DNA of 55,405 nucleotides from Candidatus Liptonbacteria bacterium (lineage in GTDB: Bacteria; Patescibacteriota; Minisyncoccia; UBA6257; JACOXY01): contig JACOXY010000013.1 of the NCBI GenBank assembly GCA_016182095.1, positions 1 through 55,405 on the forward strand, in the 5' to 3' direction. Shown one piece after another: positions 1 to 26,106 of this stretch (its first letter is position 1; every line of letters starts with the position of its first letter). A model generated the notes under the pieces. That model made no database searches. It was not told the DNA's origin and saw only the letters and a program-made list of their open reading frames with translations. A program made the position numbers and the translations under genes.

Positions 1-340
1 CATCCAATCCCAATCTTTTTTTCGCTTCCTCATTAAACCTATTAAAGAACTGCGTGCCTGCCTTGGAAAAAAGCTCGCCTAGGTCGTGTTCGCTTATAGC
101 GGCGCTCATGTTATTTTTTTCAAACTTAACGAAGCCGGCATAAGTGGCTGCCGAAGAACTATTGTGGAGAAAAATTATTTTTGAGTTTTTTGGCGGGTTG
201 AGTTTTTTTAAAAACCCATGAAGATTGCCGTGTTTTTCATCCCAATATTTAAGAAAGTCTATCTCCTGGTCTCCAAAAATCAAGGTGGCTGCTCTTATGC
301 GCCCATCGGAACAATCTACTATATATATTCTTTCTTTCAC
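1..340 (-). CDS. Hypothetical protein, truncated by the window start
   Basis: Manually translated open frame from GTG at 340 (VKERIYIVDCSDGRIRAATLIFGDQEID...RLGLD) with no stop before base 1; extended -10 TGcTATAAT 8 nt upstream. Not in the ORF track. Confidence 0.6.
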   Translation of the reverse strand, partial: MKERIYIVDCSDGRIRAATLIFGDQEIDFLKYWDEKHGNLHGFLKKLNPPKNSKIIFLHNSSSAATYAGFVKFEKNNMSAAISEHDLGELFSKAGTQFFNRFNEEAKKRLGLD

Positions 341-412
341 TTACATTTATTATAGCATTCCATTAGAAATAACAAAGCATTATCTAAACAAAAAAAGGGG
401 CACAAAGCCTCC

Positions 413-757
413 TTAGAAACAACCGCGGGGATTGGCAGTGACGGTGAGGGTAACAGTCATAACATTAGACACAACGTCCGGAGCGGCAAATATCATAGTA
501 GAAAATTTTTGATAAGCAGACGAGAGATCTCGCAAGCGAATACAGGGATGTTTATTTATCAAACGCGCAACTTCCTTGCCAAATTTCCCGGTATGATCTC
601 CGAAAAGCTCTGCAATAGTTGCCGTTTTTTGGGCTAAAATCAAACCATGGGGAAAATCGCTTGGGGATAGAAGCACTTTGACTGGGGCTTCCGTGGCGTG
701 AGCAGAGACGCTTATCACCAAAAAAATACCCGCGAGCAAGCCAGCAATTTTCATCAT
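413..757 (-). CDS. Secreted hypothetical protein
   Basis: Start reassigned to ATG 757 behind AAGGAG; signal peptide MMKIAGLLAGIFLVISVSAHA. Confidence 0.65.
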   Translation of the reverse strand: MMKIAGLLAGIFLVISVSAHATEAPVKVLLSPSDFPHGLILAQKTATIAELFGDHTGKFGKEVARLINKHPCIRLRDLSSAYQKFSTMIFAAPDVVSNVMTVTLTVTANPRGCF

Positions 758-841
758 GCAATCTCCTTTATCAAGAACCAAAAACATTATAGGTCTTGTG
801 GCAAAAAAATCAAATTCTTGCGTACGGGACAAAACGCCGCC

Positions 842-1189
842 TCATGAGCCACGGCGGCGGGGTACGATGATTATGTCAGCATAAACAACCACCAAAGAAG
901 CGACGGATGTCAGCTGGGCGGCTAAGCTATATTCATAAATAATTCCAAGGAAAAATCCGAAAGTGAAAACTATCGCGCCAGCGAGAACGGCATTTAAAAA
1001 TTCAGCAAGGCCCGCAACAGTACCAGGGTAAGGTGAGGTATATCTCACCAGAAACGAGACTACGGCAATAAATATGACCAGAATTTCTACAGTCAAAAAT
1101 TGACCGAATCGCGCGACGGGCCCCAAGAAATGGAAAAGCAGTGAGTTCGCCAGAAGATAAAAGAGTATGCATATGCCATTTGCAAGCAT
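842..1189 (-). CDS. Hypothetical membrane protein (about 4 TM)
   Basis: Four hydrophobic segments; GAGG RBS; TGcTATAAT upstream. Confidence 0.65.
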   Translation of the reverse strand: MLANGICILFYLLANSLLFHFLGPVARFGQFLTVEILVIFIAVVSFLVRYTSPYPGTVAGLAEFLNAVLAGAIVFTFGFFLGIIYEYSLAAQLTSVASLVVVYADIIIVPRRRGS

Positions 1190-1242
1190 GTAAGCCTCGC
1201 TTTTGTTTTTAGAAGCTAAAGAAATTATAGCAGAAAATCGGA

Positions 1243-1269
1243 GTCACTCAACCATTCGCGCGGATAAAA
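1243..1269. repeat. Cassette-boundary motif, copy 1
   Basis: gtcactcaaccattcgcgcggataaaa; 25/27 match to copy 3 (4023-4053). Confidence 0.75.
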
Positions 1270-1271
1270 CA

Positions 1272-1302
1272 AAAACCCCCGTGCAAGAACGCACTAGGGG
1301 GT
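1272..1302 (-). terminator. Intrinsic terminator
   Basis: accccc-gtgc...gcac-ta-gggggt hairpin followed by a U-tract on the minus strand. Confidence 0.6.
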
Positions 1303-1323
1303 GGGTGGGGGGGGAACACAAAT

Positions 1324-1788
1324 TCAAATATTATTTGATTTCGGGTAAGGTAAGAACTGCCAGGACGCAGAAACATCCTCGCGCCAAACATATCTTGAGT
1401 GACGGCAACCATATCTTAAACAAAGCACCAGTGCTTGCTGATAAGAAGATCTCATCACGCCCTTTCTCGCGGGATCTTTTTCCAAGTCATGCCAACCAAA
1501 AAAACAGAGAATTGCGCCGAATAAATTTCGAGGATTTTTCTTTTCCGTCCAAGGTTCTATAGATTCAATGGAATAATCTTCAGTGTGTCCGAAATAATCG
1601 TGGGCATGAACGCCAGACACTTCGCAGGCATTAAAGGCATCTCTATACGAATACCGCTCTACTACCGCCCAATGACCGTAATTTTTTACTCGCACAATTG
1701 AACCCAACGGAAAGCGGTCTTCAATAATTTTGTCCTGATTTCTGGCTTTAATGATCGAATCTACCGGGCGACCAATCCAAAGCCCCAT
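1324..1788 (-). CDS. Hypothetical protein
   Basis: Start reassigned to ATG 1788 behind AGGAG; TTGACA-17-TATAAA promoter at ~1856-1828; C-terminal C/H motif (LCFFGWH...CLRYGC). Confidence 0.65.
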   Translation of the reverse strand: MGLWIGRPVDSIIKARNQDKIIEDRFPLGSIVRVKNYGHWAVVERYSYRDAFNACEVSGVHAHDYFGHTEDYSIESIEPWTEKKNPRNLFGAILCFFGWHDLEKDPARKGVMRSSYQQALVLCLRYGCRHSRYVWREDVSASWQFLPYPKSNNI

Positions 1789-1854
1789 TGCTACGCTCCT
1801 TGTCAATTTAGTATTAGGTTCTACGGCCTTTATACTACCAAATATAATTCTTGT

Positions 1855-1885
1855 CAACCGTTACGCAACAGTCGCGCGGATAAAA
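1855..1885. repeat. Cassette-boundary motif, copy 2
   Basis: caaccgttacgcaacagtcgcgcggataaaa; 26/31 match to copy 3. Confidence 0.7.
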
Positions 1886-1937
1886 TAGAAACCACGCGCG
1901 AGAATGTGCGTGGCTAAAAATCAATTATCCCTTCTTA

Positions 1938-2387
1938 TTATACATAACCGAACACACTCAGCCCCTCGAATGCCTCGTTCATTTCTCTTATTCCAATAAT
2001 TTCGAAGGTATTCCCCGCCGGCTGGAACATCTCCTCGGAATTTTCTCCATCGAAATGAAATAGTATGCGATACTGTCCCCTTTTCAGGCGATAAGTACTG
2101 ATAGTGAGAATAAAAGTACCATCTTTAGAAAGTGTAAAATTTCTTGCCCAAAGCGTTGTGAAACCGCGCTTCAACGTATAGTGAACACACGGCTCAGAAG
2201 TCACCGGAAATATTGTTTCGTCATTCCGAAGAACAGTGCCGCGGAGAATGATCTTTTCTCCACGGATAATCAGAGGTACATCAATTTTAACTTTTACACG
2301 ATATTGAGATTGATTTCCTCGGCTGAAAAGTTCAGTGATGCGTTGCGCCAAAGCTTCTTGAGTCCTCTCTGCATGCGACTTACTCAT
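1938..2387 (-). CDS. Hypothetical protein
   Basis: 149-aa ORF with GGAG RBS, own TTGACA/TATAAA promoter and a downstream hairpin (1890-1915). Confidence 0.7.
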   Translation of the reverse strand: MSKSHAERTQEALAQRITELFSRGNQSQYRVKVKIDVPLIIRGEKIILRGTVLRNDETIFPVTSEPCVHYTLKRGFTTLWARNFTLSKDGTFILTISTYRLKRGQYRILFHFDGENSEEMFQPAGNTFEIIGIREMNEAFEGLSVFGYV

Positions 2388-2417
2388 GTTAATCTCTCCC
2401 TAAATGCTTTGGGCTGT

Positions 2418-2455
2418 TGCTACCTATATTTATACTCAAAAATTACGCATTGTCA
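2418..2455 (-). promoter_or_regulatory. Sigma70 promoter, homologous to 4661-4700
   Basis: TTGACA-16-TATAAAtataggtagca. Confidence 0.6.
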
Positions 2456-2898
2456 ATTGTTGCCCTAATGCGCCTAGTTCCCGCCCCCACAGCTTCTTCT
2501 TTCAAAATACGAAAGTGTCCTATCTCCCCAGTGTGGGTCACGTGAGGGCCGCCGCAAAATTCTTTGCTATAAGCGTCTTCAATCGTTTTGCCGACATAAT
2601 ATACATTCACCATGTCGGGATATTTCTCCCTAAAGTAATACAGAGCGCCGGTTTTTTCGGCTTCGGCTTTAGGCATTACTGCTTTTTGCACCGGCAAATC
2701 TTTTGCAACTATAGAATTCACTTCGTCCTCAACTTTCTTAATTTCTTCGGGTGTGAGCTTGCGAGGAAATGTAAAATCAAAACGGGTACGCTCGGCCGTA
2801 ATGTCCGATCCCGCCTGATGAACATCGTTCCCCAAAATATTCCGCATGGCCTGCTGAAGCAGATGGGTCGCGGTGTGAAGCCGTGACCGCACCTGCAT
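2443..2898 (-). CDS. Stand-alone AlaRS editing domain (AlaX-like); paralog of the alaS C-terminus
   Basis: HTATH and CGGPH Zn-ligand motifs; about 80% aa identity to the last ~145 aa of alaS by manual alignment; TGcTACAAT upstream of ATG 2898. Confidence 0.8.
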   Translation of the reverse strand: MQVRSRLHTATHLLQQAMRNILGNDVHQAGSDITAERTRFDFTFPRKLTPEEIKKVEDEVNSIVAKDLPVQKAVMPKAEAEKTGALYYFREKYPDMVNVYYVGKTIEDAYSKEFCGGPHVTHTGEIGHFRILKEEAVGAGTRRIRATIDNA

Positions 2899-3019
2899 TA
2901 GCAGACAAAAGCATTGTAGCAAAGGTTGGCATAAAAGAAAATGAGCCTCCGGCGCTGCGAAAAAATTCGCGCCGAAGGCTCAAGGGTTAAAGAGGGACAA
3001 GCCCTCAAGGTTACAAGGT

Positions 3020-3782
3020 TCAGAACTTCCGGGACGCCCCGAGGCCAACGCTGTAGTAACGGCGGCCGTCCCAGTTGAGGACGCGGAGGCCGCGCCCGTC
3101 GAAAGTGCCGACACACGAGACGAAGCCAGCAGAGACCTTGTCGGTATTGACTGTGCGTTCCGTGCAGGCTGCCCATCGCGATCCGTTGGGGCGCTCGCCG
3201 GTCTTCTTGAAGACGAGGATGTCCTTCGTCGTCTCGACGATGGTCGTCGGCACCTCGTACTCGGGCGGGAGCATCGCTACCTGTTCTTCAGGCGTCTTGT
3301 CCGTTGAGCCGGGAACGATTTCCTTGTGCACGAGGTACCAGTGACGCCGCATCGTTACCACATCGGTGTGGGGCTGACCAACATGCCACGGACTGGTGTT
3401 GAAGTAGAACTTCGGCTGACCCGTTGCCGGGTGCAATTCCATCCACTTCGCCACCGTGAGCGGATCGCCGTTTATGCAGTCGATTCCATAGAAACCGAAG
3501 TGGCAATCCTTCACCACTTTGCCGCAGAGCAAGCAGACAGAGGTGAGAACATCTTCACCCCACGGGAACTTCCCGGCTTCGCGGATCTGCTTCTTCACGA
3601 ACTTGGCGTCGTAGTAGCTCATCCAGTCGGCATCGGTGAAGATGTTGCGACCGAGAACCACCCGAGCCAACCTCGACTCGATGGAACCAACGAGACCCGA
3701 CTGCCTTCTCCAACGCGGAGACGCTTTCCTCGAACTCGCCCTTGGTCATTGTCCAGAGACCGCTTGTCTGTCTTGTGCTCAT
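3020..3782 (-). pseudogene. DGR-target-like (C-type lectin/FGE-like C-terminus) gene with a frame break near 3700
   Basis: GGAGG-ATG at 3782 (MSTRQTSGLW...) is out of frame with the main ORF 3020..3670, which ends VGTFDGRGLRVLNWDGRRYYSVGLGASRKF; GC-rich. Confidence 0.6.
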
Positions 3783-4019
3783 GGCACACCTCCAGTTTTT
3801 GATTTGCTCTCCACATCCTTTAGAGACTTTAGAGAGCGGATTACCCCTTGCCGCGGGGCTGCGGTCCCATCTCGGAATTTGAGACGAGCGTTTTGGGAAC
3901 TATTTTGGTTTATAGCGCCGAAAACGCTCGTCTCAAGATATTCATAACCTTGTTTGTTCAATTTTCAAAGGTGCTATTTTAACTGTGTTAAGTATAGCAA
4001 TATATTGCCTAAATGTCAA
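3783..4019 (-). promoter_or_regulatory. Promoter and long structured 5' leader
   Basis: TTGACA-17-TATACT; boxA-like GCACCTTTGAAAA; perfect 16-bp inverted repeat ttgagacgagcgtttt/aaaacgctcgtctcaa; further small stems; GGAGG. Confidence 0.65.
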
Positions 4020-4022
4020 GGG

Positions 4023-4053
4023 CAACCGTCACTCAACCATCGCGCGAATAAAA
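4023..4053. repeat. Cassette-boundary motif, copy 3
   Basis: caaccgtcactcaaccatcgcgcgaataaaa, next to the terminator hairpin at 4055-4086. Confidence 0.75.
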
Positions 4054-4119
4054 TAAAATCCCCCACGCAACAATGCATTGGGGGGAGAAAAAATTCCCAG
4101 GGACAAAAGGTTAAACAGA

Positions 4120-4635
4120 TTACTTGCGAACGGCGAGGAAACGAACGCTCCCGACCCAGCTGTACTCAAACCAGTACAAGAACAAGTAACGCCCCAAGTC
4201 GTCCCTGTAAAGGTACGCCACATATCGATTGCCGTGCACCTCACACACCGAACCAATGGTAACAACCGGGAAGTGCAACTGGACATCCGGGTACTTCACG
4301 CCAAACGCAAGAAGCTCGTGCAATGTGGCTGGGCGATAACCCCGATCATCAAGTTCCATGAGAGCACCATCAGATGAAACCATACGATTGAAAGAAATAA
4401 GTTCTGTCTGAACTTCTGCTCTGCCATGTTTTTTGCTGTGAAAGTTGCTGGAATTAACACTCTTGCTTGCCCAACTGTAGTGACCAAGTTCTACCAATTT
4501 TTCTACTGATATATCGTAGTTAACGGTAACAGGGTAACTGACCGCTGATCGATCAGCGGCAAGGGAGATGCAAGATAAAACGGCGAAAAGAAAAGCAATG
4601 GTAGCAAATAGAGAAAAGAGCTTATTCCGCGACAT
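4120..4635 (-). CDS. Exported protein with DGR-target-like C-terminus
   Basis: Signal/TM N-terminus; GYRPATLHELLAF motif; ends YLFLYWFEYSWVGSVRFLAVRK; GAGGAGG RBS. Confidence 0.75.
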   Translation of the reverse strand: MSRNKLFSLFATIAFLFAVLSCISLAADRSAVSYPVTVNYDISVEKLVELGHYSWASKSVNSSNFHSKKHGRAEVQTELISFNRMVSSDGALMELDDRGYRPATLHELLAFGVKYPDVQLHFPVVTIGSVCEVHGNRYVAYLYRDDLGRYLFLYWFEYSWVGSVRFLAVRK

Positions 4636-4660
4636 TACTGCCTCCTCAAGTTTTGTGATT

Positions 4661-4700
4661 TGCTATCTGTATTTATACTCAAAAAATTGTGGCTAGTCAA
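4661..4700 (-). promoter_or_regulatory. Sigma70 promoter downstream of alaS
   Basis: TTGACT-17-TATAAAtacagatagca. Confidence 0.6.
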
Positions 4701-4752
4701 CTCCGAAGCTCTGGTCGGAGCTCCGATCTCGCTATGCGAGCATCGGAGCCGT

Positions 4753-6594
4753 TTAATCTACTGAAGCGCGGATGCGGCGAACTCCCGCTCCAACGGCTTC
4801 TTCTTTCAAAATGCGAAAGCGCCCTATCTCTCTAGTGTGGGTTACATGCGGGCCCCCGCAGAATTCTTTGCTATAAGCATCTTCAATCGTTTTGCCGACA
4901 TAATATACGTTTACTGGATCAGGATATTTTTCTTTGAAAAAATACAGCGCGCCGGTTTTTTTTGCCTCCTCTATCGGCATTTCTTTGAAATGCACCGGCA
5001 TATCCCGCGCTATCACTTCATTTACTTCTGTCTCAATTTTTTTAATTTCTTCTGGGGTTAATTTTCTATGGTATGTAAAATCAAAGCGGGTGCGCTCGGC
5101 GGTAATGTCAGACCCCGCCTGATGTACTTCGTTACCCAATATATTTCTCAAGGCTTGTTGCATCAAGTGCGTCGCAGTATGTAGCCGCGTTACTTTCTTT
5201 AACTCTTCCTCATCCCCTGCTTTCAATTCACCCGTATCTAAAATAAGCCCGTGTCCACCGAATTTTTTCTCCAGTCCCGCGCGTGATTTTTCCTGATGCT
5301 TTTGGTATGCTTCATCGAATTCTTTTTCTGTCCGCTCGCTAAAACTGAACCCCCATTTCTCCATCACCATTTTCATCACCTCGAAATCAACTCCGTGCGT
5401 CTCTCTTATCCTGAATAAAATAGACCCGTCAATATCAGCCACATTATTTTTTACAACAACATTTGGTAGCAGCCTTTCAGGATCAACGCCTCCAATAAAT
5501 CGACTATAAAGTTTTTTCAAATCTGCTACGGTTCCAGTCAAAATTTTTGAGTATTTTTCTACCTCATCTTGCATAATACTCATCATTCGATCCCCGTTGT
5601 TAAGCAAATCAGGATAAAAATGCTTATATATATCAATAATTATGGAAACTGGATTCTGAAAAAAATTTTTGTCAGGTCCGGCGCCCACATCAAGATAGTG
5701 GGCCGTGAGAGCTCTCCTTAATAAGCGCCTGGGGATATAACCTCGTCCCTCTTTACCAGGCAAAACACCATCACTGATCAAAAAAACTGCCGCGCGAAGA
5801 TGATCAACGATCAACCTAATTTGACCTATGGGTTTATCTCCTTGAATTTCAATTATCGAATGCATTATTGGCTGCAACAAATCCGTCTCAAAAATATTAT
5901 TCTTCTCCTGCGAAACCATAACCAGACGTTCCAGTCCCATGCCCGTGTCAACACCCGGGGTCTTTAATTTTTCTAATTTTCCGTTTTTACAATAATATTC
6001 ATTAAAGACAATGTTCCAAATTTCAACGCCGTTTATATAAATTTCTGTGGTCGGGCCGCACGGGCCTTCGTTCCCGGTCGGGCCCCAAAAATTGTCTGTT
6101 CTGCCAAATTTTTTTATGCTTTTTACTCCCAGCGATTTCCAAATCTCTTCGGATTCAGTATCAGCAGGAACTCCATCACCACCTTCAAAAACGCTTACAT
6201 AATCTATCGCAAGCCCCATTTCTTTGGTAATAAAATCATGCGCATAGGTTATCGCCCCTTTTTTGAAATATCCGCCCTTGGGCGAAACTGGCTCGCCGGG
6301 CTTATAGCCAAACGAAAAATTCCCTAGCATTTCAAAAAAAGTAAGGTGTGACTCATCCCCCACCTCGTCAATGTCGGAAGTGCGGAATGACTTTTGAATA
6401 GAAGCGGTGTTTTTGCTTCCAAAATCCTTCATTGGGTCAGCTTCGCCCGTGTAATACTTCTTAAACTGCTGCATCCCAGCGGTCGTTAAAAGCACCGACG
6501 GGTCGTCAGGAATAAGTGATGACGAAGACACGATAGTATGTCCGCGTTCTTTGAAAAAGGCGAGAAACTTTTTACGGATTTCTTCTGAAGACAT
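4753..6594 (-). CDS. alaS: Alanine--tRNA ligase (short form lacking the C-Ala domain)
   Basis: AGMQQFK, HLTFFEMLGNFSFG, EIWNIVF, DTGMGLER, HTATH/CGGPH. Confidence 0.97.
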   Translation of the reverse strand: MSSEEIRKKFLAFFKERGHTIVSSSSLIPDDPSVLLTTAGMQQFKKYYTGEADPMKDFGSKNTASIQKSFRTSDIDEVGDESHLTFFEMLGNFSFGYKPGEPVSPKGGYFKKGAITYAHDFITKEMGLAIDYVSVFEGGDGVPADTESEEIWKSLGVKSIKKFGRTDNFWGPTGNEGPCGPTTEIYINGVEIWNIVFNEYYCKNGKLEKLKTPGVDTGMGLERLVMVSQEKNNIFETDLLQPIMHSIIEIQGDKPIGQIRLIVDHLRAAVFLISDGVLPGKEGRGYIPRRLLRRALTAHYLDVGAGPDKNFFQNPVSIIIDIYKHFYPDLLNNGDRMMSIMQDEVEKYSKILTGTVADLKKLYSRFIGGVDPERLLPNVVVKNNVADIDGSILFRIRETHGVDFEVMKMVMEKWGFSFSERTEKEFDEAYQKHQEKSRAGLEKKFGGHGLILDTGELKAGDEEELKKVTRLHTATHLMQQALRNILGNEVHQAGSDITAERTRFDFTYHRKLTPEEIKKIETEVNEVIARDMPVHFKEMPIEEAKKTGALYFFKEKYPDPVNVYYVGKTIEDAYSKEFCGGPHVTHTREIGRFRILKEEAVGAGVRRIRASVD

Positions 6595-6692
6595 GAGAGT
6601 AACTTAACACAAAAAAAAGACAAAAAAAAGGCGGCCTATGCCGCTAATTTACTTATCTTTCATTTCCTCGGAATATTTCTGAAAACAAATTC

Positions 6693-6893
6693 CTATTCTA
6701 ATTTTTTAAAAAGATACAGATTATAGAAATAGATACCAATGGCAATAAGAGCGGCAACAAGTCCAAGAGAACCAACGGCAAGATTATAAAAGCTATAGTT
6801 ATAGGGAAAGTTGGCGTTGTCAAAAATAAAAACACTCGCTACCCACGCCAGCAAACAACAACCAGTAATTCTGTTATATAATCTTGGGCTCAT
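6693..6893 (-). CDS. Small membrane protein
   Basis: Two hydrophobic segments; start uncertain. Confidence 0.45.
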   Translation of the reverse strand: MSPRLYNRITGCCLLAWVASVFIFDNANFPYNYSFYNLAVGSLGLVAALIAIGIYFYNLYLFKKLE

Positions 6894-7152
6894 GCTTACA
6901 TCAGCTCTCAATCCATATGTTCTGCGGCTAGTCAATCACATCTATGGCGCGGAGGGATTAGTGTCTGCTTACCGGCAAGCGGGGAAGTGAACAAAATTTA
7001 TCAATTGAACTCCCGTGTCGTCACAAGAGTGACTAAAGCTCCTGCGAACTCTCGAATCAGGTATCCTGCCCAAGTTTTTCTACAGAAAAATTTAGGCGGG
7101 TAGGGGCGGTCCAAAATTTAAAAAAATCACCTCACATGAGGTGATTAATTTA

Positions 7153-7773
7153 CTATCCCGAGCAGGATTTCCACTCTCCGACAAGTATCTTTTCGCAATT
7201 TCTACAGAGCCAACCAGGAAATGTTTTTTCAGATCCGTCTTTACAGGTATAAGTTCTTTTTATGGGGAAGTTGTGCGCTATGTGATACGGCGCTGCGTTG
7301 TAGGCGTCATCGCCCCAGTGCCAATTCATGTCGAATTGATAATCGCAATTGATACATGGAATGTACCGATGTGTAAAATATTCAGACATCCCATTTTTTA
7401 TTGCCCAATCGCGGTTTAGCGGTTCTTGCGGCCGCGCTCCCTTACAAACTTCTGCCGGAGTATATCTCTTCAGTTTTTTTACCGCCCAAGCGTATGCATT
7501 CTGATAAGCGATAATCTGCTCTGGCAGAATCTGCGCCACTACTTGGCAGCTTTGGTCTGATGGAGAATAGCCGACTTCCCGGACTTTAATACCCGCTCTC
7601 CGCATTTCATCTGCGATTTTTTCTGATACACGGGTAAATCGTCTTACGCGGAGGTCATATTTTGTATCATCCCACCAGCAGTATAGGGGAGCAATAAGGT
7701 TAAGAGGTTTTATGATTACATAAATAATAAAATAGGTTACGATGACAGAAAGCACCCTTTTGATCGATTTCAT
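7153..7773 (-). CDS. Hypothetical protein with CxxC motifs
   Basis: 206-aa ORF; N-terminal TM; CINC and CRNC; terminator aatcacctca/tgaggtgatt at 7126-7147. Confidence 0.7.
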   Translation of the reverse strand: MKSIKRVLSVIVTYFIIYVIIKPLNLIAPLYCWWDDTKYDLRVRRFTRVSEKIADEMRRAGIKVREVGYSPSDQSCQVVAQILPEQIIAYQNAYAWAVKKLKRYTPAEVCKGARPQEPLNRDWAIKNGMSEYFTHRYIPCINCDYQFDMNWHWGDDAYNAAPYHIAHNFPIKRTYTCKDGSEKTFPGWLCRNCEKILVGEWKSCSG

Positions 7774-9747: not shown

Positions 9748-11490
9748 TCAACATCTTAAATTATGTATTTGTTTTGTCAAAAGATCAAGTTCTCGCATGG
9801 CCTTTTGGAGTTCTTTCAGATTGCCTTTTGCCTCAAATTCTTTGACGGCGCGGGCAAGTTTCTGTTTTTCCTCTTTCAAATATTCCAATTTCAACTGCAT
9901 GCAAAGATCGTTTTCGCTGTGAGCTAAAGCGACGCCAGATCTTAAGTACAGCGAATTAATGAGCGCTCCGGTCTCGCCCTCATAATTTGCACCCGGCGCA
10001 CCGCTTGCCCCGAGGCGCAAATTTTCGGGGTTCTTCAACAAAGAAATAATATCCTGATATTTTTGGGGCAAATATTCTTTTACTTTTTGAACGATGTCCA
10101 GATCTCCCTTAGCGATTCCCAGGCTTATCAGATTTTCAGATATCAGAGCCAAGCGGCTCACAGGTTTAATATTCTCTGAATCTATGGGTGAGGCGGGCGC
10201 ACTTTCGTTTTCCGCCTTAATGCTCGCGGATTTTCCGCTCTGCTCCATTTCCTCTATTAGATTTTTTTCGGGGATACTCGATCTTTCGCTTAATTTTTTC
10301 ACCCAGATATTTTTATCTATCGGACTCCTAAAATATGCGATTTTCGCAAGAACCGCCCTTACAGATCTTTTGTCGGAACCATTTGCGAGATATCTATCAA
10401 AATAAAATTCCATCGCCGGCTTTGCGCCTTTATCAATAAGTTCCGCGAGCTTCCCGGGGTACTTTTCCACAAATTCAGCCGGGTCTTTCACGCCCTGGGG
10501 CAGAGTAACAACCCCAACCTCAAAATCATTAGCGGAACCCAAATCTATCGCCCGCTCTGCCGCCTGAATACCAGCTTCATCAGAATCAAAGCCCAGAATC
10601 AGCTTGTCGGCTTGCCTTCTTAAAACAGTCAGATGATCTTGCGTCAGTGCCGTTCCGGAAGCAGCGAGAACATTTCTAACCCCGTCCTGATGCGCCATTA
10701 AAAAATCCATCTGCCCCTCAACCAAAAAAGCCATGCCTAAATCTCTGATAGCGTTTTTGTTTTTATGAAATCCGTAAAAAATCTTGGACTTCTTGAAAAT
10801 CGCCGTTTCCGGACTGTTAACATATTTTCCCGATGTGCCATTGTCAAATTCCGGCAAAATCCTCCCGGTAAAAGCTACCGCCTTCCCAAAGTGATCGTCA
10901 ATCGGAAACATAAGCCGGCCCCTAAAGCGATCCAAATAGCCACCCCTCTCGCTCTTAAAGGCCAGGCCCGATCTTTCAATATCCGCGACTGAAAACCCCT
11001 GATTAATTAAAACCAGGGTCAATGCGTCAAATTTATTGGGAGCAAATCCAATTTCAAATTCTTCTATAGTGCCATCCTTTAGTCCGCGCGAGTGGGCATA
11101 ATTCAGGACGGCTTTATTTTCTTTTAGGGAGCTCGCGTAAAAATTCTTGGCGGTTTTGTTCATGTCATACAAAACTCCAAACTGCCTTTGCTCTGCCGGA
11201 TTAGCTCTTTTTAATTCAATCCCCACCTTTTCTGCCAGAATCCGAAGCGCTTCAAAAAACTCAATGTTTTCATACTTCATGAGAAACGTAAAAACATCTC
11301 CGCCCATATTGCACGAACCAAAACAATGCCAGGTCTGCCGATCCGGAGAGACCATAAAAGAGGGGGTTTTCTCTTTATGAAACGGGCAAACTGCTTTGAA
11401 GTTTTTTCCGGCAGGCAGGAGCGTAATGTAGCTCTTCAAGAGATCTACAATATCAATTTTTTGTTTAATTTCTTCGGCAGTAGACGGCAT
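9748..11490 (-). CDS. dnaG: DNA primase
   Basis: CPFHKEKTPSF zinc finger, KYVNSPET, VEGQMD, FDSDEAG Toprim motifs. Confidence 0.97.
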   Translation of the reverse strand: MPSTAEEIKQKIDIVDLLKSYITLLPAGKNFKAVCPFHKEKTPSFMVSPDRQTWHCFGSCNMGGDVFTFLMKYENIEFFEALRILAEKVGIELKRANPAEQRQFGVLYDMNKTAKNFYASSLKENKAVLNYAHSRGLKDGTIEEFEIGFAPNKFDALTLVLINQGFSVADIERSGLAFKSERGGYLDRFRGRLMFPIDDHFGKAVAFTGRILPEFDNGTSGKYVNSPETAIFKKSKIFYGFHKNKNAIRDLGMAFLVEGQMDFLMAHQDGVRNVLAASGTALTQDHLTVLRRQADKLILGFDSDEAGIQAAERAIDLGSANDFEVGVVTLPQGVKDPAEFVEKYPGKLAELIDKGAKPAMEFYFDRYLANGSDKRSVRAVLAKIAYFRSPIDKNIWVKKLSERSSIPEKNLIEEMEQSGKSASIKAENESAPASPIDSENIKPVSRLALISENLISLGIAKGDLDIVQKVKEYLPQKYQDIISLLKNPENLRLGASGAPGANYEGETGALINSLYLRSGVALAHSENDLCMQLKLEYLKEEKQKLARAVKEFEAKGNLKELQKAMRELDLLTKQIHNLRC

Positions 11491-23985: not shown

Positions 23986-25371
23986 TTAGGCACTAGACAT
24001 CACCCGCCTATAAAGTTTCTGGTATGCGCTCGCTGGTTTTTTCCAGCTGAAATCCGCGACCTCGCACAATCCTCGCATTTTCTTTAATTTTTCCTCCTCC
24101 ACAAAAATCATGAGCGCTTCTTCAATTGCCCCAAGAAATGCCTTGTCGTTTTGCCCATCAAAAAGAACTCCTGTTTTGTTATGTTCTATAATATCGCAAA
24201 AACTTCCGATGCGCCTCGCAATAGGAATTGCCCCGTAACGCATGGCGGTGATTTGACGGGTGCCGCTCGGTTCCGAAGCATGCGGCGCCAAAATAAAATC
24301 CGAGGCCGCGTATATTTCGTGCGCCAAATTTTCATCAGCTCCGATTTTCACAAAAACATTTTCAGGGTACCTCTGCATAAGCCGCATAAGGCCATTTTCA
24401 AATTCTTCTTCTCCGAAACCGGAAAGGGCGAGGTCGGCATCAAAAACTTCAACTAAATATGGAGCCACCGCGAGCGCCAAATGGGTTCCCTTGCCTTCAT
24501 GCAACCGCGAAACCATCCCAAAAAGCGGGCGCGACAATCCATGTTTCAGGCGAAAATTTTCTTGAAACTTTAGTTTGGCGGCGTCTTTCCCGCCAAAATT
24601 TTTAATCAAGTCATAGTCACAGCCGCTTTGAATGCCGAGCGGCTTTCTTTTGCTCAAAATCCTGTGCAGGCCGGCTCCGAGATCTTTAGTTTGGATTTCC
24701 TCTGCGTGCGCGCGACTCACAGTTGTCACAGAGTCAGCTTTTTCTATTCCCTCCTTCAGATAATTTTTATCTCTTAAAATTCCCTGGTCGCTGATGTTAT
24801 GGACAGTAAACACCACCTTTGGCAACTGCGCTTGACCGGGAATATTCTTTAATTGATTTTTGCCTCGCTTTTTTGCCATTTGCGCTTTGCCATTCGCAAT
24901 TTGCGCCACCAATTGGCCCATTTGCCAATCGTGCGCATGCACAATATCCGGAGAAAAATTCAAAAGGTTGTTGCGCAAACACGCGAAAACGGCTTCTCCG
25001 AAAAACGCGAATCTTTCTACTTCCTTTCTGTGCAGTTGAGGCGTGGCTTTATAGAGCGAAATACCGCCGCCACCTAAGATTTTTTTATTTTCAACAAAAT
25101 AAACCGTGAGTGATGAGCCGGGGAAATGCCCGGAATAAAGCCCAAACTTTATTTTCTTTTGCTTCAGGCCGTGAGAAAACCTGATGGTTTTACTTTTAAA
25201 TATCGGCTTAAGTTTCCACGCCTTTTTGTCTATAACATTATAAAGAGGCAAAATAATCGCGGCCTCCGTCCCGGCCGCATGTAATTCTTTAGGCAGACCT
25301 CCAATAACTTCACCCAAGTCACTGATTTTCACATAAGGCACAGCTTCAGATGCCGCGAATAAAACTTTCAT
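23986..25371 (-). CDS. glgA: Glycogen/starch synthase (GT5), divergent
   Basis: VLFAASEAVPY, HAHDWQ, TVHN, SEPSG..Q..AMRYG; KTGGL motif appears as KISDL. Confidence 0.85.
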   Translation of the reverse strand: MKVLFAASEAVPYVKISDLGEVIGGLPKELHAAGTEAAIILPLYNVIDKKAWKLKPIFKSKTIRFSHGLKQKKIKFGLYSGHFPGSSLTVYFVENKKILGGGGISLYKATPQLHRKEVERFAFFGEAVFACLRNNLLNFSPDIVHAHDWQMGQLVAQIANGKAQMAKKRGKNQLKNIPGQAQLPKVVFTVHNISDQGILRDKNYLKEGIEKADSVTTVSRAHAEEIQTKDLGAGLHRILSKRKPLGIQSGCDYDLIKNFGGKDAAKLKFQENFRLKHGLSRPLFGMVSRLHEGKGTHLALAVAPYLVEVFDADLALSGFGEEEFENGLMRLMQRYPENVFVKIGADENLAHEIYAASDFILAPHASEPSGTRQITAMRYGAIPIARRIGSFCDIIEHNKTGVLFDGQNDKAFLGAIEEALMIFVEEEKLKKMRGLCEVADFSWKKPASAYQKLYRRVMSSA

Positions 25372-25476
25372 GATAATTCATCATACACCGATCTTTGCCA
25401 AATTACAAATACAAATGAAAAGGGCCGACATGCGCATAGCACATCGGCCCTGGACCACTTTCACCGATGCTCGGAG

Positions 25477-26106
25477 TTAGGCCGTCGCGAGTTGGACGGC
25501 GCCACCCACGATGCGGAGGTAGTAGGCGGCCTTGAGCGGGAGCGGGGCGTCGCCCACACGCTCGCCGTTCTCATCCTTCTGCCAGACCGTTACCGGCTGG
25601 CCATCAGGACGGAAGAGCGGCTGACGCGCTTCGAGGTTGATGCTCACGGCGCGCTCTCCGGGAATCTCCTCGCCGTTCTTGTAGAACGGATTGAGGAACG
25701 CCCTGACTCGCCACATCGCGCTCTCGCAGATGCTCCGAAGTTCGGCGCGGATCACATCCCGCACCTTCTTGAACTCGTCGGAGAGTTCCACGAACTCTCG
25801 GCGGGCGAAGAGGTACCGCACCATGTGGTACGACCTCTTGCCACGCGGGTCCTTGGCGTCGATGCGCATCTTGTAGAAGCCATAGACCATCTCATACCCC
25901 GACGCCTCGAGCTCTCCGAGAAACTCCACGAGGGAGCACTTCTCGGTCGGCTCGATAACCATGACGCCGCTCGAATGGCTCTTGCGCTCTACGCGCTCCT
26001 CTTGGGTTTCCCGATTCAGACGCTTCACCGAAGTAGGTATCGCGTCGGGGTTCGAGAAGCTGAACTGCATTGCAACCAGACGGACAGTACTATTCAGTTC
26101 GACCAC
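25477..26106 (-). CDS. GC-rich hypothetical protein cassette
   Basis: AAGGAGG-GTG start; TTGACA-17-TATACT promoter; hairpin leader; terminator gggccga...tcggccc at ~25421-25450. Confidence 0.75.
   Translation of the reverse strand: MVELNSTVRLVAMQFSFSNPDAIPTSVKRLNRETQEERVERKSHSSGVMVIEPTEKCSLVEFLGELEASGYEMVYGFYKMRIDAKDPRGKRSYHMVRYLFARREFVELSDEFKKVRDVIRAELRSICESAMWRVRAFLNPFYKNGEEIPGERAVSINLEARQPLFRPDGQPVTVWQKDENGERVGDAPLPLKAAYYLRIVGGAVQLATA

Follow-up and report, generated by a model that had tools for sequence, protein, structure and literature searches.

What is the short sequence that recurs behind alaS on contig JACOXY010000013.1 of a Candidatus Liptonbacteria genome (G000; 893 kb in 23 contigs), and how did the small genes between its copies come to stand there in a row? 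The contig, 55,405 nt long, is called the window here; every gene within its positions 1-6600 lies on the minus strand, and 'behind' alaS means towards lower coordinates. A preliminary description of this DNA had read the sequence as a recombination or junction site of an integron-like array, through which autonomous gene cassettes are acquired one after another. The three copies (m1, m2 and m3) do lie on the transcribed strand at the places it gave, and they do stand after a terminator and before, or overlapping, a promoter, with a hairpin 5′ and a promoter-like site 3′ of each. What it missed is that the motif can itself be read as alaS coding sequence, and that a 147-codon fragment of alaS lies inside the array. 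Judging from its sequence, the motif is most likely a vestigial alaS terminus, comprising the last six codons, the stop and ~6 nt beyond, with the preceding terminator's T-run fused to its left end; that is, a duplicated end of the target gene, left behind as genes were gained there repeatedly, rather than a signal dedicated to recombination.

The evidence begins with the reading frame. From an Ile codon onwards, m2 reads Ile-Arg-Ala-Thr-Val-Ala-stop (1861-1881) and m3 reads Ile-Arg-Ala-Met-Val-Glu-stop (4029-4049), and m1 equals m3 plus one extra base, which shifts its frame. The alanyl-tRNA synthetases (AlaRS) of 28 relatives end in Arg-Arg-Ile-(Arg/Lys)-(Ala/Gly), three to five further residues and the stop; counted from the Ile, exactly six residues are found in 19 of the 28, and two end in Ile-Arg-Ala-Thr-Val-Glu. 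The pattern Ile-Arg-Ala-x-(Val/Ile/Leu/Ala)-x-stop has nine matches in the six frames of the whole genome, three of which fall on the real alaS end, on m2 and on m3, all on the same strand and within 2.9 kb, where the six background matches would lead one to expect 0.013 in the island. At the nucleotide level the functional alaS end (called A) agrees with m2 at 18 of 25 positions and with m3 at 16 of 25, and not one of 2000 shuffles was as good in either case; with m1 it agrees at 15 of 25, and 49 of 2000 shuffles were as good. The resemblance is also found in the reverse direction, since, when 82 loci of other genomes (428 kb) are scanned with a profile built from m1-m3 only, the top match is the alaS stop region of a same-family genome (G002, E 0.12), and the alaS end of G036 is matched as well (rank 9, E 5.5), in DNA of which alaS ends make up about 0.1%. 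The bases that m2 and m3 have past the stop are those found after the functional stop once a hairpin-forming insert of ~46 nt, which has no second copy anywhere in the genome, is set aside; the resemblance to the bases 3′ of the functional stop is seen for those 3′ of the m2 stop. Together with the long fragment, called B, five alaS termini thus stand in a row on one strand: A, m3, B, m2 and m1.

The repeated module exceeds its earlier description. In it, a terminator hairpin is followed by a T-run of 12 nt and then by a box of ~25 nt. The three co-oriented copies of this 40-60 nt module are placed at 1238-1275, 1850-1891 and 4018-4059, and in each the CGCGCG core begins 13 nt past the hairpin. 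The hairpins of m1 and m3 are homologous (83% over 58 nt) and that of m2 is different; the copies are 79-84% alike and none is identical to another. A 14-nt core is present without mismatch at 1256-1269 and 1872-1885 and with one mismatch at 4040-4053, always on the minus strand; a fourth match in the window (11078-11091) has two mismatches, against a chance expectation of 0.95, and four matches occurred in 1 of 100 shuffles. The full 31-nt consensus first proposed fits, with three mismatches at most, at 4023-4053 only. The promoter scan lists sites after m3 (4019-3991, 11/12) and m1 (1251-1224, 10/12); the promoter after m2, whose -10 box ends in A, is unlisted by the scan and was read by eye. 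Within the box there is a GC palindrome of 8-12 nt flanked by A/T, and m2 and m3 share a 5-nt direct repeat with an 11-nt period. The folds of the copies contain the terminator hairpin only, with the flanks unpaired across it and no structure common to the box; no inverted-repeat binding arms surround the box beyond the GC palindrome, and a search of Rfam over 1-7000 gave nothing relevant, its one weak small-RNA match lying within alaS (E 0.16). A dif/Xer-like box was considered and rejected by eye, for want of paired arms flanking a 6-nt spacer.

The motif is confined to this locus, as shown by the genome-wide search that the preliminary description had suggested. A three-copy profile finds its own copies over the whole genome at E 5e-10, 6e-10 and 3e-6, and the next match at E 0.83. 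That next-best match (C10:105395-105421) is intergenic and carries 14 of 16 nt of the box's right half, with a palindrome and a promoter-like site after it. A strict IUPAC pattern of the motif had no match in the species-representative genome contigs and none in the JGI metagenome contigs, and in 400 other genomes of the order a BLAST search with the 86-nt m3 module found short matches to the T-run and hairpin only, the box's right half being missing from all five of these look-alikes that were inspected. Nor did the motif profile give anything significant at 31 loci of the family of the GC-rich gene described below (best E 0.3) or at nine loci of the p171 family (best E 0.75).

Fragment B would be a relic of the same kind on a larger scale. 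It is 80.7% identical to A in amino acids and 77% in nucleotides, and matches tRNA_SAD (E 9e-17) as well as the NCBIfam models of alaS. Its upstream junction could be read in a multiple alignment that set the window against six other loci and the A copy of alaS: the 3′ region of the unit that precedes B, which belongs to a family of diversity-generating retroelement (DGR) variable proteins, extends further in the six other genomes, and in the window switches to alaS codon 468. There is no motif at this junction (~2866-2886), which is an illegitimate microhomology join. Between A and B the divergence is as large as that separating either of them from the alaS of other families (72-80% amino acid identity), which means that B is no recent in-place duplicate. 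The promoter 3′ of B equals that 3′ of A at 24 of 26 nt, and is followed by p149 and a terminator. For the promoters after m1 and m2, extended homology with the one after alaS is no stronger than with that of the DGR unit, which is unrelated. The block ending at B fits homology-facilitated illegitimate recombination, with the alaS 3′ region as the anchor, the join at ~2866-2886 and the duplicate at 2443-2886. At the m1-m3 junctions only a 2-nt overlap is readable; m3 ends 1-2 nt short of the 5′ boundary of a unit that is common, at the nucleotide level, to many genomes. As markers of junctions, then, the copies hold up; it is as a dedicated recombination signal that the motif does not, being most likely an alaS-end relic instead.

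Since same-family relatives have the conserved next gene right behind alaS, positions 341-4752 of the window form a lineage-specific island of 4.4 kb (Table 1). Full-length alaS is conserved in 39 of the 41 relatives searched. Only 146-149 nt separate it from the conserved next gene in two genomes of the family (G001, G002), G003 has one 137-aa gene in between, and G033 has ~340 nt. The gene content behind alaS thus differs from that of same-family relatives, and the iterative gene gain that had been proposed for the locus is borne out: it is a real hot spot of gene gain. At the far edge of the island, window positions 1-99 are identical to the end of contig C21 (8315-8413, 99 bases), on which the conserved gene continues and which holds genes found 3′ of alaS in relatives.

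Table 1. Features of the alaS locus and the island behind it (positions in the window)
Feature	Positions	Strand	Remarks
alaS, full-length functional copy (end 'A')	4753..6594	-	613 aa; Pfam tRNA-synt_2c E 1e-92, tRNA_SAD E 2e-15
Hairpin-forming insert, ~46 nt	4702..4748	-	between alaS stop and next -35 box; from alignment and sequence view
Promoter-p171-terminator	gene 4120..4635	-	next after alaS and the 46-nt insert
Module m3	4018..4085	-	hairpin 4060-4085, T-run, alaS-terminus relic (most likely reading) 4025-4049
GC-rich DGR variable-protein unit	2886..4021	-	57-63% GC; cut off before template repeat
Illegitimate junction	2866..2886	-	~20 nt patchy microhomology, DGR unit 3′ region / alaS codon 468
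alaS 3′ fragment 'B'	2443..2886	-	147 codons, open frame
p149	1938..2387	-	orphan; like single Ig-like repeats of large surface proteins
Module m2	1850..1912	-	terminator hairpin differing from m1/m3, T-run, relic (most likely reading) 1857-1881; runs into -35 box of p155 promoter
p155	1324..1788	-	orphan gene; promoter 5′, terminator 3′, then m1
Module m1	1238..1301	-	m3-homologous hairpin, T-run, relic (most likely reading) 1243-1265; ends 6 nt earlier than m2 and m3
p115	842..1189	-	membrane protein; distal accessory gene with promoter and terminator
p139	413..757/832	-	signal peptide; distal accessory gene with promoter and terminator
Conserved gene start	2..340	-	~400 aa; direct 3′ neighbour of alaS in relatives; far edge of island

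Displaced alaS ends were also looked for in other genomes. In an order-wide search, 12 of the 362 genomes with a match had two, and ten of the eleven other than the present one were looked at (all except G084). An independent case comes from another family (G028), where a 39-codon copy of the alaS end lies ~140 nt 3′ of alaS on the same strand, with 84% nucleotide identity over 73 nt; 3′ of this relic (C8:32405-32518, locus L090) come a promoter and a 279-aa gene. G134 has two adjacent, overlapping pieces of the alaS C-terminus on a short contig; they (G134:C23:3232-4000, L091) correspond to query residues 2-84 and 2-145, and on a contig of 4 kb may be a rearranged alaS end. A 104-residue piece lies on another contig in G100, the second match is a distant paralog in G073 and G112, G186 has two full copies, G287 has two stretches of one open reading frame (ORF), and the pieces in G217, G310 and G354 are at contig ends. 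Between alaS and the next gene of G003 and G033 no relic rose above background, in a test that also missed the window's own relics. The relics found so far have 7 codons (the m copies), 39 (G028) and 147 (B), and these unequal lengths argue against a single fixed crossover site.

The genes gained at the locus are unrelated and co-oriented, and have promoters of their own, just as had been claimed: none of their proteins has a paralog in the genome, and consensus-like promoters were found. Pfam, PHROGs and NCBIfam contain no match for p115, p139, p149, p155 or p171. For p155 there was no match but itself among 5.8 billion clusters and no usable one in the atlas. p149 has eight representatives at E <= 1e-3, the non-self ones being proteins of 760-1806 aa with several matched stretches; two of these proteins carry Big_3_5 or PPC domains. 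p171 is a signal-peptide protein of a DGR variable-protein family present in 92 of 401 genomes of the order. DGRs mutate at template adenines and diversify proteins of the C-type-lectin fold. At two loci of the p171 family (L046 and L043) the repeat mismatches have A in the downstream copy in 6 of 6 and 14 of 14 cases, and at L046 the gene adjoins a bAvd-like gene (E 2e-14) and a putative reverse-transcriptase fragment, recognised by reading the sequence and unmatched by Pfam.

The GC-rich gene belongs to a second such family, of ~285 aa, with 211 homologs at up to 82% identity in Yanofsky-, Kuenen-, Pace-, Falkowbacteria and others. Its unit comprises its own promoter (3991-4019), a leader hairpin (3879-3936), the ORF (3020-3782) and a 3′ hairpin (2945-2990), and the closest loci (L011-L017), in distant Patescibacteria, are 78-87% identical to the window in nucleotides over gene, promoter, leader hairpin and 3′ hairpin, the shared boundaries falling in the window at 4020-4021 and 2857-2894. 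In eight of nine loci tested, the final 76-118 nt of the gene recur downstream with A-specific mismatches; the downstream copy has A at 18/18, 17/17, 11/11, 20/21, 14/14, 14/14, 13/13 and 12/12 mismatches, the exception being L020 (4/18). This bias in the homologs is the signature of a DGR variable/template repeat pair. A model of the GC-rich protein has a mean pLDDT of 71 and finds nothing by Foldseek against PDB at E <= 0.001; its top rows are C-type-lectin-like at E 0.5-3, which is a lead only. At all 31 loci from species representatives (L011-L041) the gene has a higher GC content than its flanks (0.47-0.64 against 0.32-0.56), a composition that it keeps in AT-rich hosts.

The two families resemble DGRs in their variable/template repeats with adenine-specific mismatches and, in one case, in Avd and a reverse transcriptase, whereas both genes of the window are without template repeat, Avd or reverse transcriptase, and searches of related DGR-gene loci did not find the motif. 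The 3′ ends of p171 and of the GC-rich gene have no second copy (template repeat) anywhere in the genome, and both genes, though members of DGR variable-protein families, lack a working element. The genome's reverse transcriptases are on contigs C3 and C1. A complete-looking DGR is recognisable on C3, with repeats at 24239-24362 and 24627-24750 (17 of 17 mismatches at template adenines) and a reverse-transcriptase gene (25370-25966) ~620 nt downstream of them; the second such gene (C1:56227-56835) is near a contig end. In a p171 that is 96% identical and comes from another assembly (P0121), six residues differ, all outside the C-terminal variable region, which fits the absence of active DGR diversification of p171.

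The explanation that fits best, and that we hold to be reasonably probable, is that the island was built by repeated insertions of foreign one-gene DNA at the 3′ end of alaS, each of which left the older alaS terminus downstream as a relic. The incoming DNA would carry its own alaS 3′ end together with one or more self-contained units, each with promoter, small gene and terminator; homologous recombination would take place within the well-conserved 3′ region of alaS (65-80% nucleotide identity across the order), and an illegitimate join would close the other side. After each insertion alaS would be intact again and the older terminus displaced downstream. The retained duplicate B and its microhomology join are what would remain of a homologous exchange in alaS that was one-sided and had an illegitimate far end. 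The varying relic lengths and the absence of a recombinase nearby favour such a homology-anchored illegitimate recombination over an integron-like site-specific system. Within this scheme we infer the order of events, the anchoring by homology, and a single original m1-m3 junction that was copied later.

Several observations weigh against this interpretation. The relics are short (25-31 nt), and when the 4.4-kb island was scanned blind, by local alignment with the functional alaS end, the copies did not rise above background (327 of 500 shuffles scored as high), so that the argument depends on reading frame, stop codon and position, and on the profile match in the reverse direction. No relic was recognised 3′ of p115 or p139. 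Trees of the C- and N-terminal parts leave undecided which copy is native, A grouping weakly with G033 (support 89/86) and B being unplaced. The copies m1-m3 agree with one another at 19-21 of 25 nt, with end A at 15-18 of 25 and with end B at 14-17 of 31, so that the source alaS would be neither of the present copies. The closest relatives compared belong to the same family, and among them no single insertion shows up as presence against absence. Finally, all three relics begin at the same base right after the T-run, and for this shared left breakpoint a site-specific crossover point fits as well as common descent from one junction.

This last point leads to the reading in which the box is the core of an attachment site over the last seven alaS codons, at which a recombinase acting in trans inserts circular one-gene units, by tandem accretion or as an integron-like platform. 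Each unit would then consist of core, promoter, gene, terminator hairpin and T-run, and their accretion would resemble that of integrative elements, or of integrase-less cis-mobilizable elements (CIMEs), at the 3′ ends of genes. The common left breakpoint and the constant position of the CGCGCG core would follow directly, as would the right extension shared by m2 and m3, the end of m3 just before a demonstrably mobile unit, and the fact that the units are exact transcription units; the homologous hairpin arms of m1 and m3 are what related elements would be expected to have, and the box is 82% identical over 39 nt between the A side and the B side, about as conserved as alaS coding sequence (77%). 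However, the island has no recombinase gene: the ten ORFs of 2-6594 scanned with Pfam contain no integrase, and the one PF00589 match of the whole genome, its sole tyrosine-recombinase domain, is on contig C9. The box was found nowhere else and has neither attC-like fold nor binding arms, the other alaS-end relics (B and that of G028) differ from it in length, and the only junction that can be read lacks the box and is joined by microhomology. Among the 15 joints listed, of 79 in four sequencing runs, none falls at a motif copy; the contigs drop rare forms and are no evidence against presence/absence variants or circles. On balance we regard the attachment-site reading as unlikely, though worth keeping in sight; and that the last seven alaS codons serve a gene-capture system, with an integrase absent or in trans, which stacks self-contained one-gene units of promoter, ORF, terminator and core, seems somewhat more doubtful still.

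The box might also be a protein-binding or termination-linked regulatory element under selection, its likeness to alaS being due to chance or to an element that overlaps the alaS end. Its constant spacing to the terminator hairpin in three copies, its A/T-flanked palindrome, the periodic direct repeat of m2 and m3, and a conservation above that of the adjoining non-coding DNA are what one would expect of such an element. Its distance to the -10 element, on the other hand, is unequal (~27, 38 and 44 nt), the promoter that follows m3 is part of a mobile unit which has no box at any other locus inspected, the genome contains no further site and the island no regulator gene, and the in-frame stops and the AlaRS-like peptide would be left unaccounted for. 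We give a regulatory role little credence. Least credible of all is that the array is an assembly chimera of strains or organisms which share alaS and the mobile DGR unit. The unit is indeed common to many organisms, the read depth is 2-4 times higher over 2751-3000 and 3501-3750, and the contigs of every run (four of four) stop at 3628 and resume at 3698, the site of a ~91-nt gap that interrupts the GC-rich ORF relative to its homologs. Nevertheless, the contigs of the four runs (Logan assemblies) reproduce 1-2836, 2807-3628 and 3698-7500, so that every motif copy is covered on either side, as is the B junction, which is bridged in four of four runs; error-free contigs of independent assemblies cover m1, m2, m3 and the B junction (1-2836 and 3698-7500 in X1, and 1224-3628 in X2 with one difference). 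All four runs are from one study and three of them may be the genome's source, which limits this support.

Since the break in the contigs coincides with the ~91-nt gap, the frameshift of the GC-rich gene may be an assembly error or reflect strain heterogeneity. The contig that resumes there starts with 187 letters unlike the window. In X1-X3 there are also short contigs of low depth, ~90% identical to the window over 789-1091 (p115) and 1535-1835 (p155), from which it follows that a related strain or species in the same samples carries at least p115 and p155.

How does this array compare with known systems? An integron consists of intI, attI, a promoter Pc and promoterless cassettes that end in attC. 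Like it, the array strings together single genes that are unrelated and co-oriented, with a related short element after each; unlike it, the array has no intI, no attC fold and no R/L boxes, its genes all come with promoters and terminators of their own, and the element repeats the end of a housekeeping gene. An R″-like heptamer was seen by eye after only one of three cargo genes. The preliminary description was right that the motif is no attC and that no integrase lies nearby, as the folds and the position of the recombinase domain confirm; the label 'integron-like' itself does not survive, given the genes' own promoters and the lack of attC and intI. Publications found on integrons or attC in Patescibacteria concern resistance genes, and their titles and the opening lines of their abstracts describe no such array.

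Two other comparisons, with the systems that the array most resembles in how it works, come from general background on mobile DNA. As in tandem integrative elements and CIMEs, co-oriented direct repeats of the target gene's 3′ end (m1, m2, m3 and B all correspond to the alaS terminus) separate the blocks, the target is intact, and the inner blocks have no recombinase; unlike them, this array is without an integrase, its blocks are single units of 0.6-0.8 kb, its relics are unequal (7 and 147 codons) and one of its joins is a microhomology join. A recombinase or circles, which would complete the likeness to CIMEs, were not found in the island or among the joints listed, contigs being blind to rare forms. 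With homology-facilitated illegitimate, or Campbell-type, integration the locus shares one conserved anchor (the alaS 3′ region), a partial duplication of this anchor, microhomology at the other join, and relic lengths that vary between events and between genomes. What sets it apart is the repetition of events at one anchor, the ordered array they produce, and the shared breakpoint of three relics, which that mechanism alone does not predict.

Read in this way, what appeared to be a new recombination motif becomes a legible history, in which nested relics of a housekeeping-gene end record successive gains of genes, and the record, clear and datable, lies in an uncultured organism with a tiny genome. 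The genes acquired at the locus include orphaned variable proteins of DGRs. If the alaS end were instead a true attachment site, it would be a cassette platform without a local integrase, functionally like an integron and built on the terminus of a housekeeping gene. Should repeated insertion behind alaS be the right explanation, Patescibacteria may gain small surface and secreted genes in this way, with conserved essential genes serving foreign DNA as anchors of homology.

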